Below are positions 4,114 through 58,447 of a stretch of 64,000 nt of DNA, in pieces; position 1 is the stretch's first letter; each line of letters starts with the position of its first letter. A model generated the notes under the pieces. The model saw nothing but the letters and a program-made list of their open reading frames with translations. It ran no database searches and was not told the origin of the DNA. A program made the translations under genes and the position numbers. The stretch is from Oscillospiraceae bacterium (GTDB taxonomy: Bacteria > Bacteroidota > Bacteroidia > Bacteroidales > Bacteroidaceae), in NCBI GenBank assembly GCA_963610435.1, contig CAVDNW010000001.1:47105-111104 (forward strand), read 5' to 3'.

Positions 4114-7074
4114 TTATCTCGGTCCGCCGAAACCGCCTCCGGGAGGCGGCCCTGGGCGGAAGCCGCCGCGGCCCGGTCTACCGTCTCTCGGTCCGTCTTC
4201 ACGACCACCCATGCCGCGCCGTGCTTCTCGGCTACCAAAAAGGTTGAGGCGGTAGTTGACGTGCAGCATTACGTAGCTGTTGATGGCATTGTATTCCGTG
4301 TCGGTCCTTTGGCTGGCGCTGAGCGAGCGTGAGAAGTTGCTTTGATTGTGCAGAATGTCGTAGAACTGAAGCATCACGGTCAGCGGCTTGCCTTTGAGGA
4401 AGCTTTGCGAGAGCTGTGCGTTCCATACGAACTCATTGGTGTTGAGCGATGCGTCGCTGTATCCGCGGCGGCTGCTCATGTGGAGGTCGGTGGCGATGGT
4501 CGTTCCCCAAGGTGCTCTGACATTGAAGTTAAGGCCATAGGAGAACTGCCAGGTGTCAAGGTTCGACGAGGCTTGCAGTTCGTTGCGTGAGTGGCGGTAG
4601 CCCAGCGAGCCGTCAAACTCTACCTCAAACCAGTCGTTCCGGTAGCTGGCGGACAGCCGTTCGTTGATGTTCATATCCTTCGTCGTATTTTTCAGCGAGC
4701 TTTGGTTTTTCCCCAAGGTCACGTATCCAACGTTGTTGTTAAAGCTGAGGTCGGTGAAGGTGTTTACGTTCCAGTTGCCGGCTGAGTCGAGCGGCGTGTT
4801 GAACATCAGGGCGGAGTTGATGCTCCAGTCGCCATTGATGTTTTCGGGTCGTGTGATGCGCCCGCCTGTCTGCTCATTGTAGGTTACAGCTTGGCTGATG
4901 GAGTTGCTGGTGGTGTTAAATCCGAAGTTGGCCATAACGGCTTGTTTCGTCTTCTGGAAGTAGCTGTTGTAGAAGACCGAGAACCGCTGTGTGAACGAAG
5001 GCTTCAGTCCCGGGTTACCCGTGGAGATGTTGAGCGGGTTTGAGTCATCGTAGATGTCGAGCAGGTCGGTGATGCTGGGCTGCGTTGTAGAGGCGCGGTA
5101 GTTGACCCTGAGGTTGCTCACTTTGTTGAAGCGATAGCGGAAATCGAAGGTTGGCGAGATGTTGAAGACGTTGCGGGTGGTGTCGACGCTCACTCCCTGG
5201 TAGTCCTGTATGTAGTGGGATTTCTGCGGTTGTGCCAGCACACCGGCGTTCATCTGCCATTTGGTTTGTATCATGCGGAACATCAGTTCGATGCTGTGCG
5301 TGTAGTTCTTGTACTCCGAGTATCTGCTCAGGTCGGTGTCGAGGTAGTCGGTGTAGGGCTTGTCGAGGCGTCCCAGGTAATTGTCCCAAAGACGATAGCC
5401 CGATTTCAGACCGCTGAAGAAGTCCTCGCCGAGGTTGGAGAAGTCGTAGGTGTTGCGGTCGCTTTTGTTGTAACTGTAATTGAAACGATAGCGAAGTTGC
5501 AGGAAGGCACCTTTCCATAGCGGTTCGCTATAGGTGGCCTGCAGGGTGTAGTTCCACTTTTTGCCGGGCGTCAGCGTGTAGCGGTTGGTCTGGTAGGTGG
5601 AATCGTTTCCGTAGCTGTCCTTGAGTTGGTAGAGGTGGACGTTGTTCATCGACAGGCTGTTGGACTGCGAGTCGCTGTAGTTGGCATCTGCCCTCAACGT
5701 TACGTTGCGTCCTTTGTTGTTGAGCTTTCGGTTGACCTGTAGCATGCCTCCGAAGCTCTTGTTTTTGCTGTAGCTCATGGATGAGCGCTGGCTGGAGTTG
5801 ACCACGATGCTGTCTTCACTCAGTTCTCTCAGCGATTCCAAGGCAAGCGGGTCTATGACATACTTGTATGGGTCTTCGTTGAACGATGCCGACTGGCTTG
5901 CAGACAGTCCGTCGCTGGTGCTATAGCTCATTGTCGGCCGGAACATGATGTTGGTCATGCTGTCCGGTGTCCATTCCACCCGGAACTGAGCGTTCCAGCT
6001 GTTGCTCCTCGAATAGTTTTGGTTGATACTGTTGGAGAATGAGCCGACGGTGCTTACAAAGTTCTCTGATGATGTCTTGCTGTATGCATCGCCGTCGCTG
6101 TGGTTCCATCTGACGCTACCGTCCACCTTGAGTGTGTCCTTTTTCTCGTAGTTGATGTTGACGCCTGCCATCTTGGAGGCGTTGAGGCCGTTGCGTCCGC
6201 GTCCGAAGCCTCCGCCTCTTCCGCCAAACCCCATGTCATTGACGTTGTTGGCGTTGGCCATGCCGAAGACACGCCAGTCGCTGTTGAAGTATCCTCCGAA
6301 GAGTCTTGAGGAGTATCGGTCCTTGGTGCCTGCGCCCACGTCGACATTTGCCATGAGCCCCTTGTTGCTTCCGGGCTTGGTGCCGAAGTCGAGTACGGTC
6401 TGCTCATCTCCATCGTCGATGCCGGTGACGCGGGCCAGGTCGCTCTTCTGGTCGTAAGCCTTCACCTTGCTGATGATGGATGTCGGTATGTTCTTCATGG
6501 CTGTCTTTGTGTCTCCAGTCATAAATTCCTTTCCGTCCACGAGTATTTTCTTCACTTCCTTGCCGTTGATGGTGATCTTCCCGTCATCGTCAACCTTGGC
6601 TCCTGGGAGCCTTTTGACCAGTTCCTCGATGGTCGATCCCTCAGGCGTGCGATAGGCTGCGCTATTATAAATAAAGGTGTCTTCCTTAACGGTTACCTTC
6701 AGTGCCTGCGCCTTGACCACCGCTTCCTTGAGCAGGGTGGAGTTGGCCATTACTTGCAGCAGACCCATGTTGAGATTGTGGTCATCCTGCATCTGTATGC
6801 GCTTGACGGCCGGGACGTATCCCACGCTGGTCACTTTGAGCAGATATTTGTCGTTGGCTGGGGCCTGGATGACAAACTTTCCGCTGTCGTTGGACAATGC
6901 TCCGCTGATGAACGTGGAGTCCATCTTGAGCAACTGCACGGTGGCAAGCGACAGAGGCTCCTTCGACTCACTGTCGACCAGGAGCCCTGAAATTTCTCTT
7001 TTTTGGGCGAAAGCTATTGTTGTCATCAACAATAGGATGGCCAAGAGGAAGCTTTTTCTCATAGATAGTGGCAT
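4114..7074 (-). CDS. outer membrane beta-barrel receptor with N-terminal CarboxypepD_reg-like domain and plug (TonB-dependent-receptor-like)
   Basis: 986 aa. Has a signal peptide (LLAILLLMTTIAFAQ), a GLLVDSESKEPLSLATVQLL carboxypeptidase-regulatory-like fold, a plug-like INGKEVKKILVDGKEF segment and a long alternating-strand barrel ending in YRLNLF. A 40-aa Arg/Gly/Pro tail follows. The start may be ATG 7062. Confidence 0.8.
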   Translation of the reverse strand: MPLSMRKSFLLAILLLMTTIAFAQKREISGLLVDSESKEPLSLATVQLLKMDSTFISGALSNDSGKFVIQAPANDKYLLKVTSVGYVPAVKRIQMQDDHNLNMGLLQVMANSTLLKEAVVKAQALKVTVKEDTFIYNSAAYRTPEGSTIEELVKRLPGAKVDDDGKITINGKEVKKILVDGKEFMTGDTKTAMKNIPTSIISKVKAYDQKSDLARVTGIDDGDEQTVLDFGTKPGSNKGLMANVDVGAGTKDRYSSRLFGGYFNSDWRVFGMANANNVNDMGFGGRGGGFGRGRNGLNASKMAGVNINYEKKDTLKVDGSVRWNHSDGDAYSKTSSENFVSTVGSFSNSINQNYSRSNSWNAQFRVEWTPDSMTNIMFRPTMSYSTSDGLSASQSASFNEDPYKYVIDPLALESLRELSEDSIVVNSSQRSSMSYSKNKSFGGMLQVNRKLNNKGRNVTLRADANYSDSQSNSLSMNNVHLYQLKDSYGNDSTYQTNRYTLTPGKKWNYTLQATYSEPLWKGAFLQLRYRFNYSYNKSDRNTYDFSNLGEDFFSGLKSGYRLWDNYLGRLDKPYTDYLDTDLSRYSEYKNYTHSIELMFRMIQTKWQMNAGVLAQPQKSHYIQDYQGVSVDTTRNVFNISPTFDFRYRFNKVSNLRVNYRASTTQPSITDLLDIYDDSNPLNISTGNPGLKPSFTQRFSVFYNSYFQKTKQAVMANFGFNTTSNSISQAVTYNEQTGGRITRPENINGDWSINSALMFNTPLDSAGNWNVNTFTDLSFNNNVGYVTLGKNQSSLKNTTKDMNINERLSASYRNDWFEVEFDGSLGYRHSRNELQASSNLDTWQFSYGLNFNVRAPWGTTIATDLHMSSRRGYSDASLNTNEFVWNAQLSQSFLKGKPLTVMLQFYDILHNQSNFSRSLSASQRTDTEYNAINSYVMLHVNYRLNLFGSREARRGMGGREDGPRDGRPGRGGFRPGPPPGGGFGGPR

Positions 7075-46808: not shown

Positions 46809-47714
46809 TTACAAGCCCCACCAGTTGAGGTCGAGCTTCGACTCGACCGTAGTCTCCGTGTCGTCAGGTAGATTGCAGAAGAAATCTATGCCCGTGAGCT
46901 GCTCCAACCGGTCGATGGTGACGGCGTAAGAACGAAGGTTGGTGTCGCGGTTTGCCTTGTGCTCAAACCACAACCCGAGGGCGTGATACTGTCCGTTCTT
47001 TACGGCCAGGACGGCGGTGAAGAAATATTTGGGGACGATGAGATGGCTATTGCTTGTGTAGCCGGCAATCAGACTGCTCTTGTCGATGGTGCCGCCCTTG
47101 CAGACGTAGAGCACGTCTCGGTAGGTGCTGGTGTTCCACTTGTTGCGCAGGGTGTTTTCCATGGTGAGCCACACGCCAGTGTTGAAGCCGTTGATTTGCG
47201 GCTGCATGTTGCTCAGGTAGTAGGTCTGTTCGTTGACTTCCTTTGAGTAGAGGCGGTCGGCTGAGGGGCAGATGTGTCCGCGGTCATAGCCCGAGCCGCG
47301 ATAGTCGGTGAGGGTGGTGCGGTATTGCTCGGGTATGTCGGGGTCTTCTTGGAAGGGGTCTCCGTGCCATTCGGTGTTGTCCCAGTTGTCGCGGTTCCAG
47401 TTGCTATGGCTGGTGAAGGCGTTCATCTGGTAGCATGTCCAGCGCTGGGCCTTCTTGTCACAGTCCCATTCCACAGCGAAATTGACGCCGTAGTTGGCCA
47501 CGGAGTGCACCAGTACGAGGTTGTTGCCGTCGGATTTCAAGTGCGGAAATTCCAAACGGCCGTAGTTGGTGTTGGCGGTGGTAGGGTTGGCGTTTGTGTT
47601 GGTGCCTGTCTCGGTGTCGTTTTTCTTGCTGGGAAGGATGTCGTTTTCTTGGCAGGAGAAGCATACTAGACCGATGGGTAGCAGTGCAAGGGTTATGCGA
47701 TGGATTAGTTTCAT
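46809..47714 (-). CDS. DNA/RNA non-specific endonuclease (Serratia NucA/DRGH family), lipoprotein/secreted
   Basis: Start set at ATG 47714 (MKLIHRITLALLPIGLVCFSC). The catalytic motif is RGSGYDRGHICPSADR, followed by SNMQPQ and the NTGVW pattern. Confidence 0.85.
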   Translation of the reverse strand: MKLIHRITLALLPIGLVCFSCQENDILPSKKNDTETGTNTNANPTTANTNYGRLEFPHLKSDGNNLVLVHSVANYGVNFAVEWDCDKKAQRWTCYQMNAFTSHSNWNRDNWDNTEWHGDPFQEDPDIPEQYRTTLTDYRGSGYDRGHICPSADRLYSKEVNEQTYYLSNMQPQINGFNTGVWLTMENTLRNKWNTSTYRDVLYVCKGGTIDKSSLIAGYTSNSHLIVPKYFFTAVLAVKNGQYHALGLWFEHKANRDTNLRSYAVTIDRLEQLTGIDFFCNLPDDTETTVESKLDLNWWGL

Positions 47715-47836
47715 GGTGTCAATTCGGAACGGGGTTAACGAGATAAACATGAAAAAAGTGCGGCGGAACGCATATGCAACTACGTTCGACCGCACTTTCT
47801 TAATGCTTTATACCGTATGTAATTGTATGTCGAGTA

Positions 47837-48088
47837 TTACTTCTTCAACTTACCGTAACGGTTCATGAAGCGGTCAACGCGACCAGCTGTGTCGACAAGC
47901 TTGCTCTTGCCTGTGTAGAACGGGTGAGAGGTGCTTGAGATTTCGACCTTTACCACGGGGTAAGTCTCGCCTTCAAACTCTACTGTGTCATTGGTCTTGC
48001 ATGTAGACTTTGTAAGGAACATATCGCCGTTGGACATGTCCTTGAACACGACGGGGCGATAGTTTTCTGGATGAATACCTTTTTTCAT
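47837..48088 (-). CDS. rpmE2: 50S ribosomal protein L31, type B (no Cys zinc ribbon)
   Basis: 83 aa, [17 protein letters not shown]...[11 protein letters not shown]. Lacks the CxxC pairs. Confidence 0.9.
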
Positions 48089-48139
48089 TTTGATGATTGT
48101 TGTGATGATGAATAATATGCGCTATGCAATTAGCGGGTG

Positions 48140-48147
48140 CAAAATTA
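48140..48147 (-). promoter_or_regulatory. -7 promoter box TAATTTTG (rpmE2, minus strand)
   Basis: Plus-strand caaaatta, 52 nt upstream of ATG 48088. Embedded in an imperfect hairpin that could terminate the upstream lipoprotein operon. Confidence 0.45.
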
Positions 48148-48200
48148 CGAAGAATTCTGCAACCCGCCAAAGATTTGTGTAGCTTTTTGCTAAGTCTTTT

Positions 48201-49658
48201 TTACTTTACTTCCACATTCTTAATCCGCCATGTGGGCGCGGCCTCGCTGGTGCTGGTGTACTGGAAGGCCACGTAGACCGTCTTTTTGTCGGCAAAGGAG
48301 CTCAGGTCGCAAGTGGTGCTGGTGAAGTCCCAACTGTTGCCGTCGGGGTAGGCCGATGGAGTGAGCTTGGTCCAGTTGGTGCCATCGGTCGAGGCAAGCA
48401 CTTGCAGTTCGTCAGCAGTGTTTTTCATGTACTTGGCTGCCTGGTCGAAGGTCAGTGTGGCCTTGGTCAGTCCCTCAAGGCTGAAGGCTGGAGAGATAAT
48501 CATGCTCTTAGCTGCAAGATTGGTCTTGTTGACATATGCTGAGGCAGACATGCAATTGTAGGTGTCATTGTGCTGCCAGACGAAAGACAGGCCTTCGCTG
48601 AGAGAGATGTTGTTGGTGGTGAAGCCGTCGCTGCCCGAGGCAAAGGAGGCGTTGAGTCCCGTGGTGGTTGTCTCCTGTCCGTCACCGCTGATAGAGATGA
48701 TGGTGCTGCTCTTGTCCATCTCATTCTGTCCTTGGTAGTTCTTAAGCGTGCCTTTCACCACTACGGTTTGGCCCACCTTCAGGTCGTTCTTTGAGCTGAA
48801 GTCGGTACCGTTGATGCCCTTTCCTGAGTAAATCTGCAGGGCGTTGGTGGAGGTTCCGTCATCGGAAATGTAATAAGAGAGGCTCTTGTAGGTCTCGTTG
48901 TAGTAGTCGACCGATGAGATGATGCCCTTGACGTACGCTTGGCCGCTGAGAGCGTTGCCGCTATTGTCGGCAATCTTCTGGATGGCCTCGGCCACTGTCC
49001 ATGCCGTTTCGGGCGTGTTGAGGTCGCTGCTGGGCGTGGGATCGTCACCGCCGGTCTCGTCTACTTTGCCTTCTTTCAGTATGAGGTTCTTTACCTCGAT
49101 GGTCGAGGAGGATGTGGTGCATGAGTACATCAGTGCCACTACCACGTCGCCCTTTCCTATGAAGGCTTCCGGAAGGTTCTTCTTGTAGGTGGAGAACGTG
49201 TTCCAGTCGCTGCCCTCAGTCAGGGTGCCGGTGATGTCGGTCCATGACGTAGTGGTGGGATCGCCCGTATAGTTGTCGGTGACGAGCACCTTGTTCTGGT
49301 TTTGGGTTGTGTTCACATAGCGCAGTATGTAGTCGAACTGCAAGTAGGCACCTGTGCTCTTCGACAGGTCGACGGCTGACGAGACGAGGTATGCCTCCGA
49401 CTCGGTTGTCTTCTGTGCGCTATTGTCGTAGCCCGTGGCTTTGGCTGTGCTGTAGTCGATGACCCATGGCGTACCTTTCACGGTGAATGTGGTGAACTTG
49501 CCGAAATTGCTGGCAAATGTCTCGTCGAGGTAGATACCGTCGGTCGATGTGCTGTCTTGACTGTTGTTGGGATCGTCGTATGGCATGGGCACGTCAGAGC
49601 AAGCCGCGAAGGTGCAGGCGGCCAGCAGAGCCATGACGGATTTGATAATCGCTTTCAT
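48201..49658 (-). CDS. surface lipoprotein with two choice-of-anchor-J/MAM-like domains and a central OB-fold-like module
   Basis: 485 aa. Lipobox LLAACTFAACSD. Each end carries a jelly-roll-like block (FASNFGKFTTFTVKG...AYLQFDY and FASGSDGFTTNN...VYVAFQYTS...WRIKNVEVK). The middle part, YVKGIISSVDYYNETYKSLSYYISDDG...QIYSGKG...VGQTVVVKGTLKNYQG, looks OB-like. Confidence 0.55.
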   Translation of the reverse strand: MKAIIKSVMALLAACTFAACSDVPMPYDDPNNSQDSTSTDGIYLDETFASNFGKFTTFTVKGTPWVIDYSTAKATGYDNSAQKTTESEAYLVSSAVDLSKSTGAYLQFDYILRYVNTTQNQNKVLVTDNYTGDPTTTSWTDITGTLTEGSDWNTFSTYKKNLPEAFIGKGDVVVALMYSCTTSSSTIEVKNLILKEGKVDETGGDDPTPSSDLNTPETAWTVAEAIQKIADNSGNALSGQAYVKGIISSVDYYNETYKSLSYYISDDGTSTNALQIYSGKGINGTDFSSKNDLKVGQTVVVKGTLKNYQGQNEMDKSSTIISISGDGQETTTTGLNASFASGSDGFTTNNISLSEGLSFVWQHNDTYNCMSASAYVNKTNLAAKSMIISPAFSLEGLTKATLTFDQAAKYMKNTADELQVLASTDGTNWTKLTPSAYPDGNSWDFTSTTCDLSSFADKKTVYVAFQYTSTSEAAPTWRIKNVEVK

Positions 49659-49706
49659 GTTATTGATTTTCTTGTTGATGTGTTCTGTTATATGATATCT
49701 CGTAAA

Positions 49707-50555
49707 CTATTTCGCGGTCTTGATGTCGCTAGTCTTTCGGATGAGGATTTGCCACGTGTTGTTGTAGCGAGTGGCGATGCCGGTGATGTCGACGGCCAGT
49801 GGCTTGTGCTCGACAGTGTCGTAGGGCAGCGTGACGGCTGCAAACTCTGCGTAGGTGCTGGTACGAATCACAACGTCCGACCCCATTCCGGTGAGCTCTT
49901 GGTTGACGGCATTGCCGGAGGCTGTGCCTGTTGTGAAGGTGTTCTTGCCGTCGGCGTTCTTGAACGTGACGCCTTTCAGAGTGATGAGTTTGGCACAGTT
50001 TTCGTCCATGTTGTCCTTGACGGTGTTGAAGTCGACCGCCTTGATGACCGTGGTGTCGATGTCGCCCACAATCTTGAAGTGCTGGTCCCAGATGTCCTTC
50101 TGCATGCGTCCGATGCTGTTGCCGTTGTAGGGGGCGCCTATCTCGGGCTGCTTGCGGTAGCCGCCGATGTAGAGGTCCTTGAGGTCTACGAGAATTTCCG
50201 AACCTTCTGCGAGGTAACCGTTGAGGCCGCCGGCGTTGATGGCGATGATGATGGCACCCGTGGCGTCCTGCAGCATCACTTGCTTGTAGATGTTGCGCCC
50301 GATGTCGTTGCCGGTGATGCGGCCCTTAATCTGGATGTCTTCGGTAATCTTGGTGTTCTGGTCAGTGCCCGCGAAGACGTTGGGGTATCGTTTGATGAGC
50401 TCGCGGACTGAGATAACGTTGTGCTCCGTGATGCTGTTGTTGCCGAAAGGAGCGCCGTCGTCGAAGTTGGGCTCGTCCCAGTCGCCGTCCATGCAGCTTG
50501 TGAAAAGGCCGCATACTAGGGCGATGAGGAAAAGGTATGTTGCTTTTATTTTCAT
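49707..50555 (-). CDS. surface lipoprotein, DUF5689-like (OB-fold-like core)
   Basis: 282 aa. Lipobox GLFTSCMD. The pattern IQIKGRITGNDIGRNIYKQVMLQDATGAIIIAI...EILVDLKDLYIGGY...ITLKGVTF...VVIRTSTYAEFA...ITGIATRYNNTWQILIRKTSDI matches my memory of DUF5689. Confidence 0.55.
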   Translation of the reverse strand: MKIKATYLFLIALVCGLFTSCMDGDWDEPNFDDGAPFGNNSITEHNVISVRELIKRYPNVFAGTDQNTKITEDIQIKGRITGNDIGRNIYKQVMLQDATGAIIIAINAGGLNGYLAEGSEILVDLKDLYIGGYRKQPEIGAPYNGNSIGRMQKDIWDQHFKIVGDIDTTVIKAVDFNTVKDNMDENCAKLITLKGVTFKNADGKNTFTTGTASGNAVNQELTGMGSDVVIRTSTYAEFAAVTLPYDTVEHKPLAVDITGIATRYNNTWQILIRKTSDIKTAK

Positions 50556-50569
50556 GTCGTTCTCCTTCC

Positions 50570-53125
50570 TTAGAATTTATAAGTGACGATAATCATGCCG
50601 TTGATGCCGTTGGCGTAGAATTTCTTCGGGTTATTGAGGAAATTGTAGGTGCGGATGGTTTCACCGCTTTCGTCATAGGTCTGTCGGTTCTGTTCCATAC
50701 CGCCTGTGACGAGCTTGCGGTTGTTGAGCACGTTGGTCAGCGTCAGGTTGATGGAGAGTGAGTTCTTGCCCACGTAGATGCTCTTGCCGATGGAGGCGTC
50801 GAGCATAAATCCTCCGTGGCCCTTGGCCTGCGAGGGGGTCTTGCTGATGTCGTGCATGGCCTCATTGTTCTCGTCCATGATGATGTTGCCGCTTTCGTCC
50901 TTCAGTGTGGGAAGGTTCTTGTAGTAGCGTGTTACGGGCGTGTAGTAGAGGTAGATGCGGTCATAGTAGTTGCCGATGAGGTCGATGAACCAGCCGCCTG
51001 AGTGGTAGGACAGGTCGACGGAATAGGCAGAGAGGGGCGTGCCGCCCTCGCGCATATTCTTGTTGACCACGATGTCGTTGTAGTATTTGCCATCGTTGGA
51101 GAGCATGTAGATGGCCCTGGCGTTGTTGGCATACTTGGCTTCGCTGACGGTGGCCAGCGTGTTGATGCTGAATGTGGACGACAACTTGAAATCGAGGCCC
51201 AGCTCCACTCCGTAATACTGCTTGTTGATGCCTGAGAGCGATACGTAGGAGAAGGAGTTGCTGGTGTCGTAGTAGTACATGCTATACTCGGTGACATCGG
51301 CCAGACGGCTGAAATAGCCTTGGATGTTGGCACGCAACCAACTGTTTTGGAACTGGTAGCCCAGTTCGGTGGAGAAAATCTTCTCCGTGCACAGGCCCTC
51401 CACGAAGTCGTTGTTGATTTGTGGCGATGCGAAGGCCACGCGGGCGTTAGGTGCCTTCCATTCATAGCCCACTCCGAGCGACAGCGTGTTGCCGTTGCCC
51501 AACCGGATGTTGGCGCCGCCCTTGGCGCCGCCATCGAGGAAGTAGGCTGTTCCGCTCTTTCCGAGCGAGTTGTTGATGGCCAGGCCGTTCTGCATCTTGC
51601 CTTCACGCTGCAGCGATGTACCTGCGATGTTGCCGCTGATGAAGAGCCGTGCCCACTTGATCTCGGCCTGATAGTTGGCCCAGGCTTGTGCGCGGTTCAC
51701 GAAGATATTGTAGTCGTAACCGAAGCGGTCGCCCTCTCGTACCAGCTTGTTGCCGTCGCGCACGTCGTAAAGGGCGCGCGGGTCGGAGATGGAGTAGGTG
51801 CCCAAGACGTAGTAGTTGGTATTGTGGAACTGCTTGGCACCGAGCAAGTCTTCCATTGTCTGATAGTGCATGCCCTTGTTGGTGCTTAGGTTGACGCCGG
51901 CGTTGAGGAAGCTGGATGCCGTCAGGTCCTTGTGCAGGATGGACGAGAGCGTCAGCGCGAGCTGGTCGTCGTGGTAGGCCTGCTGGTAATACATCGCGTC
52001 GGCACCTTGCGCGGAGGCCGTCTTGTTTGCATAGTAGAGCTTGTCCCAGTCGATTTGCCGGTTGGCCTTTGATGCCTTGAAGAAATTCACGGCAGACTGC
52101 CAGGCCTCCAGGTCAGAGGAACTTGAAGAGCCGCTTCCGCCCCATACGTCGTAGAAGTAGCTCGGCATGAGGCTGTAGTAGTCGGGTGCGGGGTTGGTGG
52201 CGTTGTTGTAGTTCAGGCGTGTGCTGCTGTACATGGAATACTTGCCGAGCAGCGATGTGGTGAGTTTCGTCTGGTCGTCAATCTTGAAGTCCCAGGTCAG
52301 CAGAGCGGCTGGGGCGAAGTCGTGGACCACGCGGCTGTTGCGTCGCTTGCCGTCCTGGTATCCCCAGTTGGGGTTGTAGTTGTAGTTGTTGGCCAGCCAG
52401 TACATCTCGTCGGTCGATGCACTTTGTGTGGCGCGCTCCGTAGGGTTGCCCCATGTGACCAGCGAGAGGGAGTGCTGGGCGTCGAACACCTTTTCCACTC
52501 CGAGGAAATAGGAGAGCGAGTTATAGAAAGTTCCCTCCACATATCCGCGGTTGGCCCATCTGTAGGTGAGTGCGGCCGACCATGCCCATCCGTTCTCGCT
52601 GAGGCCGGAGTTGTAGGAGTACATGGCGCGGGCTGTATAGTTGCGGTTGGCAGCGGCCAGCGAGATGCGCTGGCCGACAGGCATGGCCGACGGCCGGAAG
52701 TTGTAGTTGTTGCTGCCGCCCAGTCCTGTCATGGCGAAATTGTTTGTCTCAAAGGGCAGCGCCGACTCCACGCTGCGTGTCTGGTTGTTCAGTCCTCCGA
52801 CAAAAGAGTATCGGAACTCGCCGCGCTCAAGGTCGTTTACCGGGTTTCCGTTGATGTAGATGTCGTTGTACTTGGCGTTATACGCCCTGTACTTGAACCT
52901 CATCGGGCTCCACCTGTAGCCCACCTGACTGGCATAGGCATTGGTGCTGGACGAGATGATCGACACGCTCTGTGTCACATTCTCATCCTCGCCCAGTTGA
53001 GCTTCGGTGAACGTGAATGCCTGCTCGCCGATGGAGATGGGTGGTTGGCCGATGGAGTCAGACTGTCCCCAGGCCTGATGAGCCACTCCCATGGCTACCA
53101 GTGCAAATAGAAGCTTTTTCTGCAT
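50570..53125 (-). CDS. TonB-dependent outer membrane receptor (no SusD partner)
   Basis: 851 aa. Signal peptide ending in AWGQ, a plug-like YINGNPVNDLERGEF segment, a long beta-barrel and a C-terminal aromatic residue (IIVTYKF). Lies 14 nt upstream of the DUF5689-like gene. Confidence 0.75.
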   Translation of the reverse strand: MQKKLLFALVAMGVAHQAWGQSDSIGQPPISIGEQAFTFTEAQLGEDENVTQSVSIISSSTNAYASQVGYRWSPMRFKYRAYNAKYNDIYINGNPVNDLERGEFRYSFVGGLNNQTRSVESALPFETNNFAMTGLGGSNNYNFRPSAMPVGQRISLAAANRNYTARAMYSYNSGLSENGWAWSAALTYRWANRGYVEGTFYNSLSYFLGVEKVFDAQHSLSLVTWGNPTERATQSASTDEMYWLANNYNYNPNWGYQDGKRRNSRVVHDFAPAALLTWDFKIDDQTKLTTSLLGKYSMYSSTRLNYNNATNPAPDYYSLMPSYFYDVWGGSGSSSSSDLEAWQSAVNFFKASKANRQIDWDKLYYANKTASAQGADAMYYQQAYHDDQLALTLSSILHKDLTASSFLNAGVNLSTNKGMHYQTMEDLLGAKQFHNTNYYVLGTYSISDPRALYDVRDGNKLVREGDRFGYDYNIFVNRAQAWANYQAEIKWARLFISGNIAGTSLQREGKMQNGLAINNSLGKSGTAYFLDGGAKGGANIRLGNGNTLSLGVGYEWKAPNARVAFASPQINNDFVEGLCTEKIFSTELGYQFQNSWLRANIQGYFSRLADVTEYSMYYYDTSNSFSYVSLSGINKQYYGVELGLDFKLSSTFSINTLATVSEAKYANNARAIYMLSNDGKYYNDIVVNKNMREGGTPLSAYSVDLSYHSGGWFIDLIGNYYDRIYLYYTPVTRYYKNLPTLKDESGNIIMDENNEAMHDISKTPSQAKGHGGFMLDASIGKSIYVGKNSLSINLTLTNVLNNRKLVTGGMEQNRQTYDESGETIRTYNFLNNPKKFYANGINGMIIVTYKF

Positions 53126-53278
53126 AGTTGATGGATGTAATGTTGAATGCGTAATAATAAATATTGCAAAGTAACGAAATATATTCCAAATACAGAAGTC
53201 TTTTTTATTAATTTTTTGCGAAATATGACGTTTGTTTGGATATTAATTGCGATATTTGCAGAAAAATTACAGATTAGG

Positions 53279-54442
53279 ATGAAAAGACAATTGTTTGCTT
53301 TGTTTGCCGTGTTGGTGTTGCTCCTTCCGGCATCGGCACAAAAGAAGTTCTCGGTCTATGCCGTTGGCTTCTACAACCAGGAGAACTTGTTTGACACGTG
53401 TCACGATGTGGGCAAGAACGATTACCAATATCTTCCTAATGGTTCCAACCATTGGAACGGCTTGAAATACAGTCATAAGCTCCACAACATGTCGACTGCC
53501 CTCAGCGACATGGCCACCACCACGCTGCCCGGTGTGGGCTGCGCGGCCATTGGCCTGAGCGAGGTGGAGAACGCTAAGGTGCTCGCAGACCTCTGTGACC
53601 AGCCAGCTCTGAAGGCCCGTGGCTACCAGTTCTGTCATATCGAGGGGCCCGACCATCGCGGCATCGATTGTGCGCTGCTCTATCAGCCGTCCCTTTTCAC
53701 GGTGAAGGACATGAAGCTCTATCCCTATATCCCCACCGAGAAGCAGGACTCCAACTTCCGCACCCGCGGCTTTCTGGCCGTGAGTGGCGTGATGGCGGGC
53801 GAGCATGTCGTGATCATTGTCAACCACCTGCCCAGCCGTTTCAGCGGGTCCTACTACCGTGAGGTGGGCGCAGCGCAGATCAAGGCGCTGAAGGAACGCA
53901 TTCAGGCCAAGACACCAGACTGCAAGATTGTCGTCATGGGTGATATGAATGATGACCCGAACAACAAGAGCATGTATGACATCCTGTCGGCCAAGGAGGA
54001 TATCGACAAGGTGGGAAAGGACGATATGTACAACCCATGGTACAACGTCCTCACCAAGCAGGGTACGGGGACGCTGATGTACCAGGGTTCCTGGAATCTT
54101 TTCGACCAGATTATTCTCTCTCCCAATATGCTCAACAAGAAAGGCAACAAAGCCGCCCCGTCGCTCAAATACTGGAAGTGCGAGATTCAGCGCATGCCCT
54201 ATCTCTTCCAGACGGAAGGCAAATACAAAGGCGGCACCAAACGCACCACAGCCGGCGGCGTGTGGCTCGACGGCTACTCGGACCATCTGCCGACCGTGGT
54301 CTACCTCATGAAGGAGCAAGGTGTGAAGACCAAGGATGCCGGCGACTGCCTGTTGCCCGACTTCACGGAGGCTGAGAAAAGAAACATCGCAGAGTGTGAG
54401 CTGGAGAAGCAAGAGCGCATAGCGAAGGACGACAGCAAGTGA
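53279..54442 (+). CDS. secreted endonuclease/exonuclease/phosphatase (EEP) family nuclease
   Basis: Start set at ATG 53279 (MKRQLFALFAVLVLLLPASAQ); the track ORF starts at 53147. Motifs YNQENLFD, GLSEVEN, GDMNDDP and YSDHLP are present. Confidence 0.85.
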   Translation: MKRQLFALFAVLVLLLPASAQKKFSVYAVGFYNQENLFDTCHDVGKNDYQYLPNGSNHWNGLKYSHKLHNMSTALSDMATTTLPGVGCAAIGLSEVENAKVLADLCDQPALKARGYQFCHIEGPDHRGIDCALLYQPSLFTVKDMKLYPYIPTEKQDSNFRTRGFLAVSGVMAGEHVVIIVNHLPSRFSGSYYREVGAAQIKALKERIQAKTPDCKIVVMGDMNDDPNNKSMYDILSAKEDIDKVGKDDMYNPWYNVLTKQGTGTLMYQGSWNLFDQIILSPNMLNKKGNKAAPSLKYWKCEIQRMPYLFQTEGKYKGGTKRTTAGGVWLDGYSDHLPTVVYLMKEQGVKTKDAGDCLLPDFTEAEKRNIAECELEKQERIAKDDSK

Positions 54443-54544
54443 TCCGGGAGGGCGCAGGGCCTGACGGAATTATCCGACTGTCGCGAAGGTGACGGCTCCG
54501 CAGTCTCATGACGGACGTAGATGCTCCGTAATATAAGGCATGGC

Positions 54545-55195
54545 ATGAAGAAAAAGGCATCCGAAAACGCATTGTCCTCAAGGGATGAGGCTCCTGTGGA
54601 GACCCATCCCTTTGAGCCTTTCCTGCCTTCTGGTGCCCGCTTGCTCATGCTGGGGACGTTTCCGCCAGCTCCCAAGCGATGGTGCATGGACTGGTATTAC
54701 CCCAACTATACCAACGACATGTGGCGCATCCTGGGGATCTGTTTCTTTGGCGACAAACTGCGTTTTGTCGATGAGGCGCACAAGACTTACCGTCTGGACG
54801 AGCTCAAGCGTTTTCTGGATGAGGTGGGTATTGCCATCTTCGACACTTGCCTCCGTGTGCGCCGCACCACAGGAACGGCCTCTGACAAGGATCTCGAGGT
54901 GGTGGAGCGTACCGACCTCGATGGCCTGTTGCGTAGCTTGCTGCAGTGCAGGGGTGTGGTGGCAGCCGGACAACTGGCTACCAACCTGTTCACCGGACAC
55001 TATGGTATAGACGCCCGCACGATGCGGATGGGCGACCATCGTGACTTTACCTTTGACGGACGGACCATCAGCCTCTACCGCCAGCCCAGTTCGAGCCGTG
55101 CCTTCCCCATGCGGTTGGAGCAGAAGGCCGCTTACTATAAGAGCATGTTCGAAGACTTGGGGCTCATGGCATCATGGCACCCGGACATCCTATAA
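54545..55195 (+). CDS. UDG-superfamily DNA glycosylase (deoxyinosine/hypoxanthine glycosylase-like)
   Basis: Start set at ATG 54545. HPFEPFLPSGARLLMLGTFPPAPKRWCMDWYYPNYTNDMWRILG resembles the family-6 UDG motif (GSFPS...YY.hp.N.FW). Confidence 0.6.
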   Translation: MKKKASENALSSRDEAPVETHPFEPFLPSGARLLMLGTFPPAPKRWCMDWYYPNYTNDMWRILGICFFGDKLRFVDEAHKTYRLDELKRFLDEVGIAIFDTCLRVRRTTGTASDKDLEVVERTDLDGLLRSLLQCRGVVAAGQLATNLFTGHYGIDARTMRMGDHRDFTFDGRTISLYRQPSSSRAFPMRLEQKAAYYKSMFEDLGLMASWHPDIL

Positions 55196-55214: not shown

Positions 55215-55841
55215 ATGGAAAATAAAGTGACCATTATCGGCATAGCCGGCGGCACGGGGTCGGGAAAGACCACGGTCGTGAAGAAGATTGTGGAGGCGCT
55301 TCCGCCTCATTATGTGGCCGTCGTTCCGCTCGACAGTTACTACAATGACACCACAGACCTGACGCCCGACGAGCGCAAGGCCATCAATTTCGACCATCCC
55401 GATGCGTTCGACTGGAAGCTGCTCACCAAGCAAGTCAACGAATTGCGGCAAGGCCATGCCATCGAACAGCCCACTTACTCCTATATCCTAAGCAACCGTT
55501 TGCCTGAGACCATCCATGTGGAGCCGAAGCCTGTCATCATCATCGAGGGCATCATGACGCTCATCAACAAGCGCCTGCGCGACATTATGGATCTGAAGAT
55601 CTTTGTGGACTGCGACCCTGACGAACGTCTGATCCGCAATATCCAGCGCGATACCATCGACCGCGGCCGCACGGTGTCGATGGTTGTCGACCGCTACCTG
55701 GAGGTGCTCAAGCCCATGCACGAGCAGTTTATCGAGCCTACGAAGCGCTATGCCGACGTGATTATCCCTCAGGGAGGGGAGAACGTCAAGGGCATCGGCA
55801 TGCTCACCAACTACATCAAGACGCTTATTCCCACGGAGTAG
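55215..55841 (+). CDS. udk: uridine kinase
   Basis: Start at ATG 55215 (MENKVTIIGIAGGTGSGKTT). Udk pattern runs the full length (NFDHPDAFD...YSY...DRGR). Confidence 0.95.
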   Translation: MENKVTIIGIAGGTGSGKTTVVKKIVEALPPHYVAVVPLDSYYNDTTDLTPDERKAINFDHPDAFDWKLLTKQVNELRQGHAIEQPTYSYILSNRLPETIHVEPKPVIIIEGIMTLINKRLRDIMDLKIFVDCDPDERLIRNIQRDTIDRGRTVSMVVDRYLEVLKPMHEQFIEPTKRYADVIIPQGGENVKGIGMLTNYIKTLIPTE

Positions 55842-56043: not shown

Positions 56044-56694
56044 TTATTGATCTGTCTGCCCATCGGTTATCTCTTCCGCCACAACGGTTGAGTCGTCCTT
56101 TACACCTTGCTGCGATTTCTCGAACGCCTTGCGGCACTGGTGGATTTTGATGGCATCGACCAGGTCTATCATGCCATAGGCCATCATGCCCCAGCCGATG
56201 ATGAAGAGTGGAGCGGATGCAATGACGCTGGGCTTCACCAAGGCCACGATACCCACGAGAAAGATGATGACGGGAAACACCCACCACACGTAACCGATGC
56301 GCGAGAACTTGGTGGCGACCGCAAGGTTGAAGAACAAGTTGAGGGCGCCGAGAATCAAGATGGCTGACAGAATGAACATCAGTCCGTCGACAAACGAGTT
56401 GGGAAGCATGGCGAGCAAGGCACCCAGAATGATAGAGCCGACCCCCACGATGGGGAAGGCGGGCTTGGGACGTGTCAGCCGGTTGCCGTTGGCGTCGAAG
56501 ATGTCGATGCCGTCGGCTGTGGCTTGCCGTCTGGCAGAGAAATAGGCCACCACGCTGATGACGCCCGAGACAAAGAACATGACACCGATGGCAACGGTAA
56601 TCCATGTCACCGTCTGTTCGCGATACTTGACGAGCAGGGCTCCTACGACAATGGCGCAGATAGCCCTGAAGATGCTGCTTTGGAATACTTTCAT
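56044..56694 (-). CDS. HdeD/DUF308 family membrane protein
   Basis: Start set at ATG 56694 (MKVFQSSIFRAICAIVVGALLV). Six hydrophobic helices in the paired DUF308 pattern. Confidence 0.7.
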   Translation of the reverse strand: MKVFQSSIFRAICAIVVGALLVKYREQTVTWITVAIGVMFFVSGVISVVAYFSARRQATADGIDIFDANGNRLTRPKPAFPIVGVGSIILGALLAMLPNSFVDGLMFILSAILILGALNLFFNLAVATKFSRIGYVWWVFPVIIFLVGIVALVKPSVIASAPLFIIGWGMMAYGMIDLVDAIKIHQCRKAFEKSQQGVKDDSTVVAEEITDGQTDQ

Positions 56695-56698
56695 GCCG

Positions 56699-56706
56699 CA
56701 AAGATA
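56699..56706 (-). promoter_or_regulatory. -7 promoter box TATCTTTG only 5 nt from the ATG (leaderless candidate)
   Basis: Plus-strand caaagata (56699-56706). The ATG is at 56694. Confidence 0.4.
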
Positions 56707-56789
56707 ATAAAAAGTCGGGAGCGACGCTTGTTTGACGATGTGTTTTTGCGGCGCAGGTGTGCGAAAAAATCTTAATGACAAGTTATCTT

Positions 56790-57296
56790 ATGACCACGTT
56801 GTACTTAGTGCGCCACGGCGAGACCGTGGACAACAAGGCCCAGATCATGCAAGGACAGACCGATGGCCAACTCAACGAGACCGGCCGTGTGCAGGCGCGT
56901 GCCGTGCGCGACAAGATGGCCCATGTGCCCATCGATTCCTTTGTGGCGAGCGACCTGCACCGCGCAGTGGAGACCTGCGAGATCATCGCTGCGCCACACG
57001 GCAAACCGGTGGTGACCACCCCGCTGCTTCGCGAGCGCGACTGGGGCAGTTTCACGGGCATGTTCATTCCTGACCTGAAGGGACGAACGTGGCCCGACGA
57101 CATTGAGACTCTCGACGGCCTGAAGCGCCGCGCAGGCGAGTTTCTGGCCTGGGTGAAGGATACCTATCCTGGCCAGACCGTGCTTGCCGTGGGCCACGGT
57201 ATCATCAACAAGGCCATACAGAGCGTCTTTTTCGACAAACCCATGAACGAGGTGGCGAAGATGGCCAATGCCGAGGTGCGCCTCTTGCGTCTCTGA
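56790..57296 (+). CDS. histidine phosphatase (phosphoglycerate mutase) family protein
   Basis: Start at ATG 56790 (MTTLYLVRHGETVDN). RHG and the later H of the HP superfamily (VGHG) are present. Confidence 0.85.
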   Translation: MTTLYLVRHGETVDNKAQIMQGQTDGQLNETGRVQARAVRDKMAHVPIDSFVASDLHRAVETCEIIAAPHGKPVVTTPLLRERDWGSFTGMFIPDLKGRTWPDDIETLDGLKRRAGEFLAWVKDTYPGQTVLAVGHGIINKAIQSVFFDKPMNEVAKMANAEVRLLRL

Positions 57297-57472: not shown

Positions 57473-58447
57473 TTATTTTCTCCCAAAGTGACCGCCGGTC
57501 GAACGGGTGGCACCGCCGTTGTTGCCGCCGCCGAAGCTTCTTGAGACACCGCCCGACTGGCTGGGTGCGCTGAAGCTGCGTGTTGGGGCCGACTGTCTGA
57601 CCGAGCTGTTGCCGAAGCTGCGCGTGGCAGTAGACTGGCGTTGGCTGGTGCTGGGCGTGAAGGTGTTGCTGGGCTTTGTCGTTGACGTGTTGCCGCGGCC
57701 GAAGGTGCGTTGGCTGTTGCTGGGCTGTGTCACCGTGGTGCGCGTGCTGCTCTGGCGCATGGCGCCACCAAAGGTGCGTGTGGTGCCGTTAGTGGTCTGT
57801 GTGTTGCGCTGGTTGCCGCCGAAAGTGCGCTGGTTGTTGGCCGTCTGGTTGTTGGCGAAGCGTGTGCCGTTGCCAAACTGGCGTGTGCCATGATTGTCGG
57901 CAAGCTGCTGCCCGCGTCCGAAGTCGCCTCGGTCGAAGCCGTCGCGCATGCCCATGCGCCGTCCGCCGTCGGGTCTTGGTCCGCCCCATGTGCGGCCGTG
58001 GTACCAGCTGGCTCCGCCGTTCATCCTCCAGCTGTGTCCGCCGCGATAGCTCACGTAGAATGCCGGCCGGCCGAAGTAGAAGTAGTCGCGGTGTGGGTAG
58101 CGGGCGTAGATGCGGAAGTGCCAGAAGCCTGCGTCCCAGTAGAGCGGACGGTAGAAATAGGCTGCATCCACGAATGCGCGGTATTGCCAGTCGAGCAGGA
58201 TGTAGCTCAAGTCGAGATTGCGGTGTGTCCAATAGTTGCCGTAGAGGTCATTGCGACTGTTGATGCCCATGAGATAGTCGAGGTTGATTTCGTAGGCAGC
58301 CTCGTACTGGTCATCGGTGAGGTTGAGCTCGTATGCCATCTTGTCGGTGAGAAAGAGGGCTTGGTCGCGGGCCTGCTCGTAACTCATGGCTGATGCCTGG
58401 ACTGTCATTGTGATCAGTGCAACAAGCGTTAACATAAACTTTTTCAT
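57473..58447 (-). CDS. secreted protein with aromatic-rich N-domain and R-[TS]-F-G repeat tail
   Basis: 324 aa. Signal peptide ending in VQASA. Trp/Tyr/Phe-rich domain. The C-terminal ~170 aa carry at least 7 copies of the R(T/S/Q)FG(G/N/R) motif in an Asn/Gln/Thr/Ser-rich context. Confidence 0.6.
   Translation of the reverse strand: MKKFMLTLVALITMTVQASAMSYEQARDQALFLTDKMAYELNLTDDQYEAAYEINLDYLMGINSRNDLYGNYWTHRNLDLSYILLDWQYRAFVDAAYFYRPLYWDAGFWHFRIYARYPHRDYFYFGRPAFYVSYRGGHSWRMNGGASWYHGRTWGGPRPDGGRRMGMRDGFDRGDFGRGQQLADNHGTRQFGNGTRFANNQTANNQRTFGGNQRNTQTTNGTTRTFGGAMRQSSTRTTVTQPSNSQRTFGRGNTSTTKPSNTFTPSTSQRQSTATRSFGNSSVRQSAPTRSFSAPSQSGGVSRSFGGGNNGGATRSTGGHFGRK

Follow-up and report, generated by a model that had tools for sequence, protein, structure and literature searches.

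Gene content of the locus

In the present study, we describe a locus encoding an outer-membrane barrel, two binding-type lipoproteins and two exported nucleases in a window of 64,000 nucleotides (positions 47,105 to 111,104 of contig CAVDNW010000001.1, assembly GCA_963610435.1), and we interpret it as a likely Prevotellaceae relative of the ddbABCDEF locus of Bacteroides thetaiotaomicron (BT3558-3563; Sharan et al., PNAS 2025, PMC12478041). All coordinates below are those of the window. The minus strand carries, in the order of transcription, the DdbC-like outer-membrane barrel of 851 amino acids with a signal peptidase I (SPI) signal peptide (50570-53125, assigned through its homologues), a DdbD-like DUF5689 lipoprotein of 282 amino acids (49707-50555, PF18942), a choice-of-anchor-J lipoprotein of 485 amino acids in the DdbE position (48201-49658, NCBIfam choice_anch_J), the rpmE2 gene for the type B (zinc-independent) ribosomal protein L31 (47837-48088, NF002462) and an Endonuclease_NS lipoprotein of 301 amino acids (46809-47714, open reading frame (ORF) and Pfam PF01223). 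The plus strand carries a DdbB-like, SPI-type EEP-family nuclease (Exo_endo_phos_3) of 387 amino acids (53279-54442, PF19580), a cytoplasmic uracil-DNA glycosylase (UDG)-like ORF of 224 amino acids (54521-55195, TIGR04274, below cutoff) and the nucleoside salvage gene for uridine kinase, udk (55215-55841, NF004018), which is co-directional with the EEP gene.

The barrel and DUF5689 genes are separated by 14 nt and the DUF5689 and anchor-J genes by 48 nt, and the co-directional string of the EEP, UDG-like and udk genes has gaps of 78 and 19 nt. Between the barrel and EEP operons lies an AT-rich divergent intergenic region, read from the sequence and presumed to be the promoter region (53126-53278); a scan of this region for a sigma-70-type consensus gave no match, which is uninformative because the scan does not cover Bacteroidota promoters. 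The Rfam and tRNA scans of the window were both empty. An ORF check placed every gene where the preliminary description had put it and reproduced the gaps of 14 and 48 nt. The domain assignments were obtained for 7 of the 8 proteins, the exception being the barrel, for which TonB_dep_Rec or Plug matches had been expected. The description of the barrel as SusD-less was borne out, as its neighbors are the DUF5689 and anchor-J proteins and no match to a SusD family was obtained with Pfam or NCBIfam.

The outer-membrane barrel

The barrel belongs to a family of more than 3500 homologues (1673 clusters at 50% identity), some of which are named 'TonB-dependent receptor [Prevotella sp.]'. Among 47 diverse members of this family, an N-terminal CarboxypepD_reg domain was found in 21, a Plug domain in 13 and a TonB_dep_Rec barrel in 1, and the Plug matches of these relatives align to residues ~37-137 of the window barrel. 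The homologue of Phocaeicola massiliensis, which was matched by the window barrel with phmmer (E = 1.3e-39), carries a clear Plug domain (E = 8.3e-13, 49 bits), and the TonB-dependent receptor (TBDR) of Bacteroides finegoldii was matched with BLASTP at 33% identity (E = 6e-122); the Bacteroides and Phocaeicola homologues retrieved are 33% and 26% identical to the window barrel. These two records, and those of Aureibacter and Flammeovirga discussed below, were taken from PLSDB. A single-sequence search of the PDB with the window barrel matched nothing. Because its homologues carry Plug and CarboxypepD_reg domains, we conclude, through transitive homology, that the barrel is a predicted divergent, SusD-less transporter of the TonB-dependent type.

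The window barrel ends in Phe and lacks the N-terminal CarboxypepD_reg domain, with 39 residues ahead of the plug-like region compared with ~110-120 in the members carrying CarboxypepD_reg. Just upstream of the plug-like region, the strongly conserved motif AFTFTEAQLGED (residues 36-48) matches no defined consensus and is, by its position, a candidate TonB box.

The lipoproteins

The DUF5689 lipoprotein was identified by PF18942 (E = 1.6e-61) and is 29% identical to the DUF5689 protein of B. finegoldii (BLASTP, E = 1e-32), and it is a putative substrate-binding partner of the barrel. In its structure model, the top PDB matches are all nucleic-acid-binding OB or HIN domains, namely LysRS OB, IFI16, p202, AIM2, p204 and POT1. 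As the underlying alignment is shallow and the model poor, these fold matches are suggestive, and they would agree with the published resemblance of DdbD to the p202 HIN domain. The two halves of the DUF5689 protein gave no significant match to each other with hhalign.

The anchor-J protein was matched by choice_anch_J (E = 1.7e-22), and its AlphaFold2 model (predicted local distance difference test (pLDDT) score, 81.9) shows three domains: a jelly roll (~40-205), an OB fold (~212-328) and the choice-of-anchor-J jelly roll (~332-485). In the window protein, the PF01336 OB match is weak (E = 0.0034); among relatives, PF01336 was found in 28 of 33 (best E = 4.7e-6), and some match PF13742 or DUF6359 at this place, so that, from these profile matches, the central domain is assigned as an OB fold. 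The flanking beta-sandwiches gave Foldseek matches to reelin, MAM, CBM22 and SGBP-B, and the two jelly rolls are related to each other (hhalign, E = 9e-5). As the jelly rolls dominated the whole-chain Foldseek search, the OB domain was not scored by structure. Thus, the proposal that both lipoproteins have OB-like centers holds for the anchor-J protein and, for the DUF5689 protein, depends on a low-confidence model with OB/HIN matches.

A relative of the two lipoproteins in which DUF5689 and DUF5017 are fused in one protein, as published for RA0C_RS04920, clarifies how they are related to other systems. Its N-terminal half resembles the window DUF5689 protein (E = 2.7e-16) and its C-terminal half the anchor-J jelly rolls (E = 9.5e-16); therefore, the window pair represents a split and expanded version of the fused type. 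The M949_1556 lipoprotein family of NCBIfam was considered as a link to Riemerella and rejected, since the match is partial (81.8 bits compared with a cutoff of 475) and the identity of M949_1556 with RA0C_RS04920 could not be verified. Lipobox-like N-termini of the three lipoproteins of the locus are present in most orthologues (76/80, 64/65 and 46/56).

The nucleases and the adjoining genes

The Endonuclease_NS protein (PF01223, E = 4.8e-45) has a lipobox reading VCFS|C, followed by QEND. The catalytic motif of the Serratia nuclease family is present, with DRGH at residues 144-147 and the Mg-binding N169, and G146-H147, N169 and E186 are invariant in 56 orthologues. By analogy with the SPII (signal peptidase II) nucleases DdbA and DdbF, it is predicted to act as a nuclease of the surface or of outer-membrane vesicles. 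The EEP nuclease (PF19580, E = 4.6e-86) is 43% identical to the EEP protein of the TBDR-DUF5689-EEP cluster of B. finegoldii (BLASTP, E = 1e-93) and has the features of its superfamily, that is, the metal-binding Glu, the catalytic Asp/Asn and the His of the C-terminal SDH; E95, E97, H183, D222, N224 and D335-H336 are invariant in 73 orthologues. It is assigned as an SPI protein because a lipobox-like N-terminus is present in just 7 of the 73 orthologues, and, as for DdbB, a location in the periplasm or release from the cell is more likely than anchoring at the surface. The preliminary description had placed both nucleases at the surface, which fits the Endonuclease_NS lipoprotein and is less likely for the EEP nuclease.

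The uridine kinase and L31 genes were also assigned (udk, NF004018, E = 3.7e-84; rpmE2, Ribosomal_L31 / type B L31, NF002462, E = 1.9e-38). The protein placed in the UDG superfamily by the preliminary description was matched by TIGR04274 (DNA-deoxyinosine glycosylase) below the cutoff (E = 2.2e-8) and had no match in Pfam. A profile of 13 orthologues matched PDB entry 2l3f (E = 2.8e-6), which has the library title 'uncharacterized protein' and which we take to be a putative archaeal UDG. The superfamily call is thus weak: the protein somewhat resembles a hypoxanthine-DNA glycosylase, and its role at the locus is putative.

Conservation in Prevotellaceae and distribution in other lineages

A genome scan with one genome per species and a barrel alignment of 14 sequences returned 80 loci, all of them in Prevotellaceae and many from rumen and gut commensals, with barrel identities of 47-95%; the nearest species representatives are ~82-85% identical to the window at the DNA level, and the window is accordingly placed in a Prevotella species. 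Among the loci with enough flanking sequence, the DUF5689 gene follows the barrel in 79/79, and the anchor-J gene comes next in 64/71. The EEP nuclease lies divergently upstream of the barrel in 71/76, with the UDG-like gene after it in 40/66 and udk present in 49/66, and Endonuclease_NS lies downstream of the barrel in 54/67, with the L31B gene between anchor-J and Endonuclease_NS in 50/67. The UDG-like gene is linked to the locus solely within Prevotellaceae, and rpmE2 is missing from the non-Prevotellaceae versions. We regard rpmE2 as a passenger gene, the retention of which may reflect plain synteny or shared regulation.

Beyond Prevotellaceae, the core of barrel and DUF5689 was found in Bacteroides, Alistipes, Cytophagales and further lineages beside at least three nuclease families, and DUF5689 is present in 6/6 distant lineages. 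One lineage with a 41-43% identical barrel has the same five genes, without rpmE2 and with different flanks, and Endonuclease_NS is present in the distant loci L082-L085. In one relative (L086), the order is deoC, EEP, barrel, a fused DUF5689+DUF6359 protein and Endonuclease_1; an Alistipes relative has Endonuclease_NS, two DUF4493+Endonuclease_1 proteins, the barrel, DUF5689 and DUF6359. In other relatives, DUF5689+DUF5017 comes after the barrel, or EEP is accompanied by a PLD-type protein bearing a type IX secretion system (T9SS) tail. The order is TBDR-DUF5689-EEP in the B. finegoldii record, barrel-DUF5689-DUF5689-endonuclease-EEP-EEP in the Aureibacter record and EEP-EEP-TBDR-DUF6359-endonuclease in the Flammeovirga record. 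The string of EEP, UDG-like and udk genes in Prevotellaceae and the deoC gene next to EEP in L086 are a recurring tie of the importer to nucleoside salvage and catabolism. The survey that the preliminary description had called for, on the co-occurrence of TBDR, DUF5689 and nuclease genes, was therefore strongly positive both in Prevotellaceae and in other Bacteroidota.

Nuclease swapping is non-orthologous replacement around a constant transporter. As the core of barrel and DUF5689 is constant while the nuclease families swap, the substrate is expected to be nucleic acid, and this is the strongest computational argument obtained herein. Moreover, the arrangement is more than chance, since it is kept in 80 species and recurs in other lineages.

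Several of the distant loci show features of their own. The varied nuclease sets around the core include a T9SS-tailed PLD-type protein, fusions of DUF4493 to Endonuclease_1 and a double EEP, located at L092 4515-7925 (-), at L088 5393-7968 and 13240-15961, and at L097 4606-6591 and 12639-14834. In the P. massiliensis record (L098, 8638-12985, +), the Plug-bearing homologue is followed by a DUF5017 protein, and its upstream neighbors encode an ABC-F ATPase, a transporter of the major facilitator superfamily and PanB, with no nuclease among them; this locus recalls the nuclease-poor Pv2 subtype of Sharan et al. (PMC12478041).

Other genes in the window

Beside the endonuclease gene lies an ORF of 3177 amino acids (37059-46592, +) with a signal-peptide-like N-terminus, which is also present in the closest relatives (L001 and L002) and has a faint CarboxypepD_reg match at residues 3043-3102 as its sole Pfam match. 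After udk, a DUF308 membrane protein (56044-56781, -) and a histidine-phosphatase-like ORF with an RHG motif (56757-57296, +) are syntenic in many Prevotellaceae loci. An ORF of 324 amino acids (57473-58447, -) with a signal peptide has no Pfam match; its N-terminal half is rich in Tyr and Trp, and its C-terminal half is long, of low complexity and rich in Gly, Arg, Thr, Ser, Asn and Gln. A second SusD-less outer-membrane barrel of 986 amino acids (4114-7074, -) carries CarboxypepD_reg and OMP_b-brl_3 and has no Plug match.

Discussion

The gene content, the catalytic residues, the signal-peptide types, the homology with Bacteroides and Cytophagales clusters and the conservation of the locus were shown in the present study, and they can be compared with several described systems. 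Of the products of the ddb locus, three are nucleases, and the others are the transporter DdbC, DdbD with its DUF5689 domain and DdbE, which is of the SPII type; the locus is needed for the depletion of exogenous DNA and the production of uracil and xanthine, both in vitro and in mice (PMC12478041). In the same study, DdbC and DdbD were modelled as a complex, DdbD was found to resemble the HIN domain of p202, and the locus was described as similar to a polysaccharide utilization locus (PUL) and as evolutionarily related to transformation genes of Riemerella (PMC12478041). Earlier, BT3560-3563 had been studied by Béchon et al. (PNAS 2022, PMC8851478), and the synteny of BT3560-3564 was reported to reach Prevotella (PMC8851478); Prevotella goes unmentioned in the text of the 2025 ddb study (PMC12478041).

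As in ddb, a SusD-less barrel of the predicted TonB type is followed at the window directly by a DUF5689 protein and then by a further SPII lipoprotein, an SPI nuclease adjoins the barrel, at least one nuclease is of the SPII (surface) type, and the whole follows a PUL-like logic applied to DNA; both the SPII and the SPI nuclease have intact catalytic residues. An indirect link to the family of DdbC and RA0C_RS04915 is provided by the B. finegoldii TBDR and by CarboxypepD_reg barrels that precede DUF5689(+DUF5017) proteins. Unlike ddb with its three nucleases, the window locus has two, an EEP and an Endonuclease_NS enzyme. In addition, its EEP gene is transcribed away from the barrel gene instead of co-directionally, rpmE2 is inserted, and the barrel is without CarboxypepD_reg. 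Compared with the published locus, an OB fold is now seen in the protein at the DdbE position.

Natural transformation of Riemerella anatipestifer requires both RA0C_RS04915, a CarboxypepD_reg barrel, and RA0C_RS04920, in which DUF5689 is combined with choice-of-anchor J/DUF5017 (Huang et al. 2021, PMC8459023), and according to Sharan et al. these genes have a neighboring nuclease (PMC12478041). The same barrel family is paired with DUF5689 and choice-of-anchor-J/DUF5017 domains in both cases. However, the modules are fused in one protein in Riemerella, whereas at the window two genes encode them and an OB domain is added, CarboxypepD_reg is present on the Riemerella barrel, and the role demonstrated there is transformation, not catabolism; the Riemerella-type architecture of a CarboxypepD_reg barrel with a single fused lipoprotein was not found at the window. 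The locus also resembles SusC/SusD PULs in that hydrolases of the surface and of the periplasm are combined with binding-type lipoproteins on the surface and a barrel predicted to depend on TonB, whereas it has no SusD-like protein, its hydrolases are nucleases, and its barrel is unrecognized by the SusC, TonB_dep_Rec and Plug models.

Based on this architecture, and on homology to other Bacteroides, Phocaeicola and Cytophagales clusters, we consider it likely that the region belongs, as a representative from Prevotellaceae, to the ddb-type DNA-utilization loci, with a mechanism of surface cleavage, capture, import, trimming and salvage. In such a mechanism, cleavage would take place on the cell surface or on vesicles, where the lipid-anchored, sugar-non-specific Endonuclease_NS would act on extracellular DNA and probably also on RNA. 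The polymer, or pieces of it, would be bound at the entrance of the plugged barrel by the DdbD-like, tandem OB/HIN-like DUF5689 protein together with the jelly-roll/OB/jelly-roll protein, and the fragments would be imported into the periplasm with energy provided through TonB. The SPI-exported and divergently transcribed EEP nuclease would then trim the imported fragments, although part of it may be released, and the products would feed nucleoside salvage or catabolism, in keeping with udk adjoining the locus and deoC in one relative. Substrate binding, TonB dependence, the direction of transport and the physiological output are inferred from the experiments in B. thetaiotaomicron and Riemerella and would be expected by analogy.

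The model of capture and import in the preliminary description was essentially right and agrees with the published, experimentally supported model of the homologous ddbABCDEF (PMC12478041). However, its statement that no characterized oligonucleotide-specific TBDR module was known does not stand, because the system has already been characterized as the ddb locus (PMC12478041), and both this kind of system and its mechanism were already published.

The published DdbC proteins are divided into the subtypes Bt1, Bt2, Pv1 and Pv2, defined by an identity above 50% and a coverage above 75% relative to the queries WP_008762511.1, WP_055220680.1, WP_005843284.1 and WP_117829583.1 (PMC12478041). Since the window barrel is 33% identical to its B. 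finegoldii homologue and these subtypes require more than 50%, it probably lies outside all four, and, judged by sequence identity, the Prevotellaceae loci probably form a separate ddb subtype.

Several observations weigh against the assignment of the locus to DNA utilization. In B. thetaiotaomicron, DNA is a poor sole source of C, N or P, and what was measured was the production of uracil and xanthine rather than growth (PMC12478041). The window barrel had no match in Pfam or NCBIfam, even at E = 10, and the profile of its family reached the TonB-dependent transporter OprC in the PDB with a marginal E = 0.034. The model of the DUF5689 protein has a pLDDT of 55.7, its OB/HIN matches are weak (E = 4e-3 to 3e-2), and the hhalign comparison of its halves with the anchor-J OB domain was non-significant (P = 0.006). 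In addition, none of the three window lipoproteins (0/3) has the strict export motif C(x/xx)(D/E)(D/E) applied by Sharan et al. (PMC12478041). Both lipoproteins are also acidic (mature isoelectric points (pI), 5.05 and 4.43; orthologue medians, 5.0 and 4.6), with a pI of 4.55 for the anchor-J OB domain; such acidity is unusual for proteins that bind DNA non-specifically and hints at binding through bridging cations or local patches.

Other explanations have to be weighed against these data. The genetic role of RA0C_RS04915 and RA0C_RS04920 in R. anatipestifer (PMC8459023) suggests that the barrel and lipoproteins might instead form the outer-membrane DNA-uptake step of natural transformation, delivering intact DNA to ComEC/DprA rather than a nutrient. 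This would also fit the relative of the window barrel (E = 4.1e-117) that precedes the fused DUF5689+DUF5017 protein matching both window lipoproteins, and the view of Sharan et al. that the ddb and Riemerella systems are evolutionarily related (PMC12478041). We nevertheless regard it as unlikely, considering that a surface non-specific endonuclease with operon-linked EEP and udk genes suits degradation and salvage, that deoC adjoins in one relative, that transformation assays in gut Bacteroidales were inconsistent (PMC12478041) and that no competence genes were found among the window ORFs scanned; moreover, roles in transformation and in DNA utilization are not mutually exclusive.

That the nucleases act mainly as colonization or virulence factors against biofilm DNA and neutrophil extracellular traps (NETs), with the barrel and lipoproteins secondary or unrelated, appears very unlikely. 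Prevotella intermedia secretes NucA (EEP, SPI, ~357 amino acids) and NucD (Endonuclease_NS), both of which degrade NETs (Doke et al. 2016, PMC5516193; see also PMC12568770). Both enzyme families of the window are represented in P. intermedia, a member of the same genus; the tags of strain 17 (PIN17_A1415 and PIN17_0064) indicate that the two nuclease genes are apparently non-adjacent, and a transporter context was not described (PMC5516193). In the loci surveyed herein, however, barrel and DUF5689 are the invariant core around which the nuclease families change, which places the conserved function in the transport and binding of nucleic acid, and many of the loci are found in rumen and gut commensals. 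A role in NETs or biofilms would be compatible with DNA utilization as a side effect of it. Finally, it is highly improbable that the barrel imports something other than nucleic acid, for example a glycan or a metal complex, beside nuclease genes retained through inherited synteny. The flanks of the anchor-J protein do resemble the beta-sandwiches of CBM22, SGBP-B and MAM, the lipoproteins are acidic, and automatic annotation by NCBI gave one homologue Gene Ontology terms for siderophore transport; however, three to four unrelated nuclease families adjoin the core across Bacteroidota classes while the flanks are unrelated, the lipoproteins contain OB and DUF6359 domains, and the genetic evidence from B. 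thetaiotaomicron and Riemerella concerns DNA (PMC12478041, PMC8459023).

Within the interpretation as a ddb-type DNA-utilization locus, a more specific proposal, which we consider quite unlikely, is that the EEP/UDG-like/udk operon couples the Prevotellaceae importer to a downstream pathway of its own and that this barrel clade is a fifth ddb subtype with an OB-fold receptor of the DdbE type. The UDG-like protein would then act on short oligonucleotides that have been imported, or on damaged nucleotides, and free their deaminated bases, and uridine kinase would recapture ribonucleosides. Sharan et al. invoke 'unidentified downstream enzymes' between DNA import and the release of deaminated bases (PMC12478041), and, if the proposal is true, the UDG-like protein and udk would be some of these enzymes.

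The advance of the present study is incremental. What is modestly new is the occurrence of a version of the locus in Prevotellaceae, the presence of an OB fold in the protein at the DdbE position, the barrel without CarboxypepD_reg, the Prevotellaceae-specific linkage to rpmE2 and the string of EEP, UDG-like and udk genes. Prevotella and Segatella are dominant in the gut, the rumen and the mouth. A newly described nutrient and nucleobase pathway would thus be extended to Prevotellaceae, in 80 species and with both nucleases catalytically intact as judged by their residues. Moreover, its OB fold makes the protein at the DdbE position a candidate second nucleic-acid receptor, and the pair of EEP and Endonuclease_NS enzymes known from NET degradation by oral Prevotella gains a possible context of import.

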